A stretch of 64,000 nt of DNA, taken from the NCBI GenBank assembly GCA_000002445.1, contig CP000067.1, positions 1,216,001 through 1,280,000 on the forward strand, in the 5' to 3' direction. The DNA is from Trypanosoma brucei. Lineage: Eukaryota. How positions within the stretch are numbered: position 1 is the stretch's first letter; each line of letters starts with the position of its first letter. This document shows positions 33,816 to 36,768 of this stretch, in pieces. Made by a program: the position numbers.

Positions 33816-36768
33816 TTTATTTATTTTCTCGACCACTTGATGAGGGTATGTTCACTTTGCTTTGTTTACCCGATTGCTGTTCTTACCGTTCACTTCATCA
33901 CGTCTGTCTGTCTCCTCCCTGCGACGGCAGCCGCAAGCACACAAGCGATAGTCTCCCAGCTCCGCACCGCTCGTGGCGATAATAATAACAATAATAATAA
34001 TAATAACAATCAACGTTTCTCCGATGGCAGCGGCCGTAATAATGAGAATGATGCGAGCAAGAAAACAATAAAGAATAATTTGATCCACAGCGTGAAGCAG
34101 TCGTGCATGACTTCCGTCCGCCATCGGATGTAGCATTGCACTGAAGCTCGAACACTCAAAAAATCGCGAAGACGGCGGTAGACGTACTGTGCACCCACGT
34201 GGAAGTTATAACTGTCAATCACCCCCTTACTTACACACACCTTACTCTAATATTAAAGACGGCGCGCTGAGCATCTTCGCCATAGCGACGCGTCCCAGAG
34301 CATCTTCATCCCGGCTGTCATCATCCTCACGGTCAAAAGCCGCATCGTAATGCATGGCCGCCACGTAATACTTGTCTCGCTCTAAGTCCAGATCTTCCCC
34401 TCCATCCTCCTGAGCCTTGATATCCACCAACATTTTTTCCAGCCGGCGCTGCTGCCCAACAAAGCGGGGGGTGACACCGATGAAATACCGCATGCCATCA
34501 TGTTCGACACGACGAATTATATAGCGATCCACACGGAGTGGTGCGCCCGTTGTGGGGTCACGGACCCAGTGATCGTCCTCCTCAGCGGCATCGCGAGTCT
34601 TGAGTGAGATTATTTTTATCCATGAAAGAAGAACCTCTTCCACATTGGTTGCCCGATAGGCCACACCGTCCTGTTGCTGTTGTTGCTGACGCCTCTCGCC
34701 AGGAGCAACGGAGGGACCATCGCGATCAAAAGGAAAACACACCCAAAAAGCATTCGAAGGCGCCTCGCCTGGGTCTTGTAACAGCACATTACTCGGATGA
34801 TTGCTCGTATAGTTCACTGGAGGGCTTTTCTGCTCAGCAGGCGTCGCCGGCTCCAGGAGTGTGGATGTGCTGTTCAGGCTCTTCTTGGTGTGTGGAAAAG
34901 TCATTTCAAGCGACGTGCCGGAATTACTGCCGGGCGTCTTACATGGTGAACCCCTCCGCTGGCGATCGCCGATCTCCGCAGGAGTGCTGCATCGGAGAAC
35001 GTCACCCTGATAGAGCCCCATACTCGGCATGTCCTCGGCCACAATGAACACATCATTGGCGAGCTCTGGCTCCGGCATTGGCATACCACCGCGTAACAAA
35101 CCACGGTAATTCCACGGGCGTGGTATTGGCAAAAGACTGTTGTCAACCGTCTGCGTCAGCTGCTGCGCAAGCATAAGACACCCCCGTCGGGCGTACGCGG
35201 CACTCGCCCAAATGCACAGCCGACCATCTTCTACCCACATGCGGAAGCGGTTCCGTCGTGTTGCCAGAAGCGATGCAGCCCGAAACGCTTCACGTTGCGG
35301 GCACGAGTTGGGTGGTCCACCGCCCGCGGAGTCGGAGGCGCCATCAAGCACCCACGGCGGGACGCGCACATGTGACATACTCGTAACGGAGGGATGTGTT
35401 AGTGGCGTCGCCTGCACATTCACGCCTGACACGAGGAGTATAGGAATGGTGCCATCGGGATTGGTGTTGTGTGCAGGGCGGAGCTTCAGCGACTGCGCCT
35501 CCGACGGATCAAGGAAAAGTCGGTGCTGAGAGACGACACCGGGCACATCTTCTTCAAAAAGGTACAGTATATCTGCGTCACAACGGGAGGATGCCTCCAC
35601 CGCGTCGTGAACGCTATCAGTACTTGGAGATGAGCTTGCACTACTACCACTACTGTTCGCGCTACAGAAACTGCGGCGCTTCCCACCCGCGTTCAACAAA
35701 CTACGAAGTCGCACTCGCATCTCCCGCACAAACTGCAGCATCGGAATGTTTGATATGGGAGTTCGAAGAATCATGGGGATCATCGGAATGTACGGAGCCC
35801 GAATTTGAGCCTCAATGCACTGTCGAACGTACATGTGGACAGCAAGCATCACCACGTTTCCCAATATCTGATCACCGACATCCTTGTCAACGAACATTGT
35901 CGCCTTCAGCATATGCTGCTCTACTACTTCCCCGTGTACAGTGATGGATATGGTGGAGGGAAGGAGCCCAAACATACCGAGTACCTTAACCGTCGAGCCA
36001 AGAAACTCAACCCCGGCGTCCGGAGCAGACTTGTGTGCCTCCGAACGCGACACAATCGCACATGGAACTGGCCGAAGATAATAGGCACTCGGTGAAGTTA
36101 CGTGCGTACCGAACTCATTACAATGCGTGTGTTGCTCCCTTCCCTTTATGTATGCCAGAGCGTCGTTGTAGCCGTTGGCAAAAGCCCCTGGACCGAATCC
36201 AAAATACTCTTCATATGAGTCACCAAATGCAGCTCCATACTCCTGCGGATGAGGCGATTTGTACTGTTGTTGCCTTTGTTGGTGGCGCTGCTGCTGCTGG
36301 ATCTGCTTTTTGTACCTCTCTCGCAGCCCTTCATCTGTCTCAGACATGCAACACTCGGTCTCTCGCACGAGTCTTTGGTATAAACCTGATATGTCGTCTG
36401 TGAAAAGAGTCTCCACACGTTTATCTCTCGCGAGACTCCCTGGACTGTCTAAATCCGCGTTATTGGCGTGAACTGTCGTCTGGCAGTAGTAGTCAGATTC
36501 CCTGTCCGTATCTGCGGAGCGCACCGCCCGGTAGTAATATTTGGCTGTTCGGTGGTGTCTCGCCTGGAACAGACGCTCAAACAGAGGGCAGCTCTCACTC
36601 GGAAAAAATTCGGTTGTGAGGGGAACTAATATGACTTCACTCCGCCTATTGCGCCCATGGCGATGGCTGTACAACCCACGCCGTTGTGTCTCCCTGCTCG
36701 GAAGTGCTCCCATATTCACTTCAAACAGCCCACGTGATGATATGAGCCCAACAATTTATCCCCGTTCC

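Follow-up and report, generated by a model that had tools for sequence, protein, structure and literature searches.

A conserved N-myristoylation signal in PuREBP1 and its tandem relatives on Trypanosoma brucei chromosome 4

The sequence examined here is a 64-kb stretch (the window) of chromosome 4 of Trypanosoma brucei TREU927. It contains three related genes, designated A, B and C, whose products share an N-terminal motif of the kind recognized by N-myristoyltransferase (NMT). All sizeable real genes in the window are on the minus strand. Gene A (34242..36713, minus strand, 823 amino acids plus stop) is Tb927.4.4550, which encodes purine-responsive element-binding protein 1, PuREBP1 (PMC8053114). 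Its minus-strand open reading frame (ORF; 34242..36719) translates as V-N-MGALPSRETQRRGLY, with the first ATG at 36713. The product of this ATG is identical end to end, over 823 amino acids, to XP_844604 and to UniRef Q583E0 ('Purine-responsive element-binding protein 1'), and the first-pass annotation was therefore right to move the start of A from the upstream GTG to the ATG. Gene B (43265..45973, minus strand, 902 amino acids) corresponds to XP_844606, and its ORF begins directly at 45973 with MGVAPSRETLKRGLY. Gene C (48341..51592, minus strand, 1083 amino acids) corresponds to XP_844607, and its ORF begins directly at 51592 with MGAVPSRESLSRGLC. Both accessions lie on the same 1.59-Mb chromosome-4 record as XP_844604. 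The accession order, together with the pairing of LmjF31.1510 with Tb927.4.4580 in Table S1 of Mills et al. 2007 (PMC1885993), points to Tb927.4.4570 for B and identifies C as Tb927.4.4580. On translation, codons 1-7 read MGALPSR in A (36693..36713), MGVAPSR in B (45953..45973) and MGAVPSR in C (51572..51592), all on the minus strand, exactly as first reported for the three genes.

The Met-Gly start of A, B and C is secure. An in-frame TAA lies 45, 30 and 18 nucleotides (nt) upstream of the ATG in A, B and C, respectively, and each gene is preceded on the minus strand by a leader that is free of ATG in all frames. The leader of A spans 1517 nt (36714..38230; 18.3 ATGs expected, 0 seen), that of B 1250 nt (45974..47223; 9.7 expected, 0 seen) and that of C 2177 nt (51593..53769; 25 expected, 0 seen). 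The probability of finding no ATG under a first-order Markov model is about 1e-8 for A, 6e-5 for B and 1e-11 for C, and the three leaders are the longest ATG-free runs on the minus strand of the window. A composition artefact was ruled out as the cause, as the same stretches hold 7-32 occurrences of other trinucleotides with this base composition. Because the upstream leaders hold no ATG, the Met-Gly codon would be the first AUG of the mRNA for any splice acceptor. At the orthologous loci examined (A of T. cruzi, Leishmania and T. vivax, B and C of T. vivax, and the copy of A on T. brucei chromosome 8) the Met-Gly ATG is likewise preceded by an in-frame stop, and the interval between the two holds no in-frame ATG. 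The first-pass annotation stood or fell with Gly being residue 2, and the upstream stops, the ATG-free leaders and the deposited proteins all place it there. The runs suggest that these T. brucei genes have unusually long 5′ untranslated regions (UTRs) from which selection keeps upstream AUGs out.

Other ATG-free stretches and leader features were recorded alongside these. A fourth run of about 1250 nt (11776-13024, minus strand) lies upstream of a gene for a 1542-amino-acid protein with a PP2C domain (7147..11775), and the remaining runs on the minus strand of the window are all 490 nt or shorter. The chromosome-8 copy of PuREBP1 is preceded by 2553 nt without ATG (L005 1448-4000; 28 expected) and the T. 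vivax C orthologue by 958 nt (L004 3043-4000; 10 expected); the stretch upstream of the A orthologues of T. cruzi, Leishmania and T. vivax is only 168-669 nt. The leader of C carries a polypyrimidine tract at -119..-100 followed by an AG at about -98. Inside the leader of A, some 60-100 nt 5′ of the PuREBP1 ATG, the plus strand has about 40 nt of (CT)n (36770-36812), which is (GA)n on the coding strand.

The N-termini of A, B and C all fit the PROSITE pattern PS00008, G-{EDRKHPFYW}-x(2)-[STAGCN]-{P}, and show the residues preferred by NMT: small and uncharged at position 3, Ser, Thr or another small residue at position 6 and no Pro at position 7. They are the only Met-Gly starts among the real genes of the window. 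Overall identity among the three proteins is 19-28%, rising to about 50% in the first 70 columns of the alignment. Pairwise identity reaches 67-73% over residues 1-15, against 16-27% over the remainder. Because the first 15 residues are far more alike than the rest, this comparison of sequences argues that the common motif reflects descent and strong constraint, not chance.

The motif is retained far beyond T. brucei. Searches with A, B and C brought up orthologues from Trypanosoma, Leishmania, Leptomonas, Porcisia, Angomonas, Phytomonas and metagenomic sources, giving 52 distinct N-termini, all of which have M1, G2, P5 and E8. S6 is kept in 51/52, the sole exception being a Cys in T. congolense, a residue that NMT accepts at position 6. 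Position 7 is either Arg or His, and R12 is kept in 50/52. When 1.84 billion representative proteins were searched with a profile, only 118 relatives came up, with all three groups (A, B and C) represented. In this wider family 124 of 150 unique N-termini begin Met-Gly, and 119 of these 124 fit PS00008; the remaining 26 come from fragments or wrongly called starts, and three of them hold the motif a few residues in. The family module can be written MG-x-x-P-S-[RH]-E followed by [LIV]PLT..[FY]F. The similarity of B and C to A covers the N-terminal domain and additional blocks, and 23 columns are invariant across 44 aligned sequences. A, B and C stand in tandem and have diverged from one another; the small family to which they belong is known to date only from trypanosomatid-like sequences. 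Duplicates of all three are present on chromosome 8 in the interval Tb927.8.7750-7780. The copy of A is Tb927.8.7780 and begins MGALPSRETQH, the copy of B begins MGAAPSRETLRR and the likely copy of C (P0060) begins MGAVPSRESLG; the source tables conflict on which identifier belongs to the B copy and which to the C copy.

N-myristoylation of the PuREBP1 family is already known, having been predicted in 2007 and later detected in orthologues. The idea is thus not new with the first-pass annotation, as Mills et al. 2007 already have it in their supplementary tables. The Myristoylator scores in Tables S1-S3 are 0.984 for Tb04.3I12.600 (A, MGALPSRETQ), 0.888 for Tb04.3I12.520 (C, MGAVPSRESL), 0.975 and 0.854 for the chromosome-8 copies Tb08.6H23.50 and Tb08.6H23.30, 0.970 for L. 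major LmjF31.1400, 0.968 for L. major LmjF31.1510 and 0.983 for the T. cruzi A orthologues (PMC1885993). Experimental evidence comes from two later studies. In L. donovani, Wright et al. 2015 sequenced the YnMyr-modified peptide G(+534.33)ALPSHETHER from LDBPK_311430, the orthologue of PuREBP1 (PMC4372256). The C orthologue LdBPK_311540, on which the predictors agree (Myristoylator high, NMT Predictor reliable), is classed as a high-confidence, inhibitor-sensitive NMT substrate, as are LdBPK_200770 and LdBPK_200750, which are more distant members (PMC4372256). In T. cruzi, the B orthologue K4E6H0 was enriched by azidomyristate (Roberts and Fairlamb 2016, Table S2) with a false discovery rate of 0.009, a difference of 6.4 and 16 unique peptides in label-free quantification (LFQ), and also in stable isotope labelling by amino acids in cell culture (SILAC) (PMC4974623). 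Among the enriched T. cruzi proteins are this B orthologue and one more distant member; T. cruzi PuREBP1 (GALPSR...) is not one of them (PMC4974623). The myristoylome lists (PMC1885993, PMC4372256, PMC4974623) therefore already hold A, C, the chromosome-8 copies, LmjF31.1400/1510, LdBPK_311430/311530/311540 and K4E6H0. These papers are older than the name PuREBP1 and treat the family as 'hypothetical proteins'.

With a secure start, an invariant Gly2, published prediction scores and lipidated orthologues, the Met-Gly start is a real NMT substrate motif. The support expected from click-chemistry acyl-proteomes was indeed found, as orthologues of A, B and C have all been lipid-tagged or enriched (PMC4372256, PMC4974623). 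Translation from the annotated first ATG would be followed by removal of Met1 by methionine aminopeptidase, exposing Gly2, to which NMT would add myristate while the chain is still being synthesized. For the family as a whole this order of events can be put forward with high confidence; from the orthologue experiments we infer that it extends to A, B and C of T. brucei themselves. The wider family takes in the proteins P0066-P0159 and L. donovani LdBPK_200770, 200750, 080630, 311450 and 311550. Several Leishmania members of the family are experimentally supported NMT substrates, and the lipid-modified peptide G*TAPSAEIVPDAPFR has been sequenced from the neighbouring gene LDBPK_311550.

The function of one member is known. 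PuREBP1 is essential and, together with PuREBP2, binds a stem-loop in the 3′-UTR of the mRNA for the nucleobase transporter NT8 (PMC8053114). The two proteins repress NT8 when purines are abundant (Rico-Jimenez et al. 2021, PMC8053114). When PuREBP1 carries the tandem affinity purification (TAP) tag at its N-terminus (TAP-PuREBP1), neither PuREBP2 nor NT8 mRNA is pulled down, whereas the C-terminally tagged PuREBP1-TAP retrieves them (PMC8053114). According to the same report no conserved motif is identifiable in PuREBP1; its tandem relatives Tb927.4.4570 and Tb927.4.4580 are not discussed, and the main text contains neither a word that begins with 'myristoyl' nor any mention of GNAT or acetyltransferase (PMC8053114).

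On two counts the N-terminus of PuREBP1 may be more than a substrate for NMT. Pro5, Glu8 and Arg12 are conserved beyond the needs of the enzyme. In an AlphaFold2 model of PuREBP1 built from the 44-sequence alignment (predicted template modelling score, pTM, 0.75; mean predicted local distance difference test, pLDDT, 69.7) residues 1-50 have pLDDT values of 78-95 and the N-terminal peptide is packed on the body of the protein. On the strength of this extra conservation, the modelled docking and the effect of the N-terminal tag, we think that the lipidated N-terminus may be an integral working component of the domain or complex itself, not a signal for sorting. A functional free N-terminus would explain why the N-terminal tag abolishes binding of PuREBP2 and NT8 mRNA and the C-terminal tag does not.

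The myristoylation signal on the PuREBP1 family is thus correct but nothing new; setting the loss of function on N-terminal tagging against myristoylation may be a new connection. The link is not made in PMC8053114 and, in the part of the PuREBP1 literature surveyed, it appears not to have been made elsewhere. It would make an essential, purine-responsive RNA-binding regulator a substrate of NMT in which a blocked N-terminus prevents the protein from binding either its partner or RNA. As NMT has been validated as a drug target in T. brucei, loss of PuREBP1-family function may add to the effect of NMT inhibitors.

The region that follows the lipidation site may have the fold of the GCN5-related N-acetyltransferases (GNATs), a superfamily that includes NMT itself. 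The predicted GNAT-like domain of A comprises about residues 25-340 (35694..36641, minus strand), and the model shows the mixed beta-sheet with helices and the beta4/beta5 splay by which the GNAT fold is recognized. A loop conserved throughout the family, K-[SD]-[AV]-G-[DE]-[QH] (K277-D-V-G280-D-Q282 in A; 35868..35885, minus strand), lies inside this domain at the place where GNATs have motif A, although it fits only part of the motif Q/R-x-x-G-x-G/A. Weak Foldseek matches include GNAT and NMT chains, mixed with noise from Cys-loop receptors. The predicted models thus suggest that the N-terminal 340 residues or so may form a GNAT-like fold, possibly a new observation. Compared with the GNAT superfamily, the PuREBP1 domain has no sequence-level match, large insertions and a motif that is only half-canonical; coenzyme A (CoA) binding or catalysis by it would be putative. 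If the model is true, it offers a concrete candidate ligand pocket for purine sensing.

As a whole, the observations are best explained, with good confidence, by a Met-Gly start, myristoylation by NMT and a lipidated N-terminus that forms part of a GNAT-like domain or its complex. The lipidated N-terminus would run straight into the conserved GNAT-like (acyl-CoA N-acyltransferase) domain of about 340 residues, onto which it is modelled to pack. The free myristoyl-Gly N-terminus would then act chiefly within the protein or complex, by docking intramolecularly, binding a partner or touching a membrane transiently. A myristoylated N-terminus on a folded soluble protein is likewise found in recoverin, c-Abl, the catalytic subunit of PKA and AMPK beta. 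In such docked or switch proteins the lipid may regulate conformation or partners instead of acting as a permanent anchor. The likeness of PuREBP1 to them is purely an analogy, in which a pocket, a switch and ligand dependence would be hypothetical. A bolder version, to which we would assign only a small chance, is that the PuREBP1 family are N-myristoylated pseudo- or real acyltransferase-like proteins whose GNAT-like pocket senses purine status, with docked myristoyl-Gly switching the binding of PuREBP2 and RNA. CoA and acyl-CoAs contain an adenine nucleotide. If true, such a sensor with a myristoyl switch would provide a structural answer to how purines regulate PuREBP1 and PuREBP2 and would define a kinetoplastid family of lipidated RNA regulators with a GNAT fold.

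Several results weigh against lipidation of these proteins, a role for the lipid or the GNAT-like fold. A Pfam scan of A, B and C returned zero family matches even at E-values up to 1, a profile search of the PDB sequences gave only polyglutamine and low-complexity noise, and a Foldseek search of the PDB produced no significant match (best E 0.29). The GNAT-like fold comes from predicted structures, and the second of these is a weak model, with a mean pLDDT of 60.8. The N-terminal TAP tag may disrupt PuREBP1 through its bulk on a docked N-terminus, with no role for the lipid. As to lipidation itself, T. brucei B (MGVAPS, Val3) is absent from the 2007 high-confidence list, which has a cut-off of 0.85 (PMC1885993). 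The PuREBP1 orthologue LDBPK_311430 is of low abundance and was classed only as 'lower confidence', with a single modified-peptide identification at -10logP 34, and NMT Predictor scores it 'no' while Myristoylator scores it 'high' (PMC4372256).

The alternative that survives best, unlikely as we consider it, is membrane anchoring: the myristate, perhaps helped by a second signal, would hold the proteins at the flagellar or pellicular membrane or at the surface of organelles, the location favoured by the first-pass annotation. The calflagins/FCaBP, CAP5.5, SMP-1, HASPB and PPEF are likewise Met-Gly substrates of NMT listed in the same prediction tables (PMC1885993). Dual-acylated flagellar and pellicular proteins start with MGC, whereas A, B and C start with MG[AV][LAV]PS and have no Cys nearby. 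Dual acylation would demand a Cys close behind Gly2, and none of the three has one: the cysteine positions are 42 for A, 51 for B, and 15 and 41 for C, none of them at 3-5 where palmitoylation would be expected, and Cys15 of C is not kept in C orthologues. For PuREBP1 the second signal could be a basic cluster, RRGLYSHRHGRNRR, giving a myristate-plus-basic motif of the Src/MARCKS type. Residues 2-26 of A do hold seven Lys/Arg and two His against two acidic residues, and this cluster could confer a weak, reversible membrane affinity; the same segment has five Lys/Arg in C but only three in B, and in the model of A the basic segment takes the form of a beta-hairpin inside the fold. About half of the additional mRNAs bound by PuREBP1/2 code for membrane proteins (PMC8053114), which would suit a membrane-proximal regulator, and text searches turned up no localisation information on B or C. 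However, PuREBP1 is reported to be apparently cytosolic and was purified as a soluble RNA-protein complex that is stable to salt and detergent (PMC8053114). With A soluble and no Cys at 3-5 in any of the three, targeting to the flagellum, pellicle or organelle surfaces finds no support.

It is less likely still that MGxxPSRE is kept for a structural or partner-binding reason only, the T. brucei N-terminus being unmyristoylated, or myristoylated in a small fraction, and for instance acetylated or free. The invariance or near-invariance of Pro5, Glu8 and Arg12, none of which NMT needs, would suit this explanation, as would the negative NMT Predictor call for the weakly detected Leishmania orthologue of A. 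Against it, a myristate analogue was sequenced on Gly2 of that very orthologue, whose first five mature residues, GALPS, are identical to those of PuREBP1. The C orthologue is sensitive to NMT inhibitors, as are two more distant members; the B orthologue is enriched in T. cruzi, and Gly2 is invariant across the whole family.

A conserved Cys lies downstream of the signal, in the motif FFPSxDC. It is present in all three proteins, at residues 42 (A), 51 (B) and 41 (C), a spacing that the first-pass annotation, with its range of 35-45 residues, gave slightly wrongly for B. The motif reads FFPSESC in A (residues 36-42; 36588..36608), FFPSADC in B (residues 45-51; 45821..45841) and FFPSPDC in C (residues 35-41; 51470..51490), all on the minus strand, and in A it occupies a predicted loop between the strand 25-31 and the helix 43-53. 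It is very improbable that this Cys serves for a second acylation or binds a metal in concert with the myristate. It is kept in 51/52 N-termini of the three orthogroups, but T. cruzi PuREBP1 (P0006) has a Ser, and among the 124 N-termini of the wider family just 74 have Cys at this position, 25 have Ser and the remainder have other residues; as a family-wide acylation or metal site it was rejected on these counts. The residue is also 40-50 positions away from Gly2, in a loop with pLDDT >90 directly before helix 43-53, and has no conserved partner Cys or His cluster around it. Instead, it would serve structurally, in the loop that leads from the first strand of the domain to the first helix. 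The Cys that is invariant in the 44-sequence alignment is a different one, Cys218 of A, which is accordingly more conserved than that of FFPSxDC. It forms, with the equally invariant Pro215, part of a P-x-P-C-A strand (PVPCA; 36061-36072, minus strand) and both residues are found in all 44 aligned members.

Translation from another codon, so that Gly would not be residue 2, is scarcely credible: the mechanically called ORF of A does open at a GTG two codons upstream, but initiation in a eukaryote is at AUG, the three in-frame stops and more than 1.2 kb of ATG-free sequence lie upstream, in A some 120 highly conserved residues precede the next in-frame Met, the deposited proteins begin Met-Gly and the lipidated Leishmania peptide begins at Gly2.

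ZNK1, a candidate paralog from a preprint that mentions PuREBP1, was ruled out as the unrelated gene Tb927.11.9510. Between A and B lies a gene for a protein of 1080 amino acids (39045-42287, minus strand), probably Tb927.4.4560, which is unrelated to the PuREBP1 family, starts with MVEEPS and gave zero family matches in a Pfam scan even at E-values up to 1. Two long ORFs are found on the plus strand, one antisense to C (48692-49384, 230 amino acids) and the other antisense to this intervening gene (40810-41850, 346 amino acids). One of them begins with Met-Gly; both are most likely spurious and belong to the non-coding strand.

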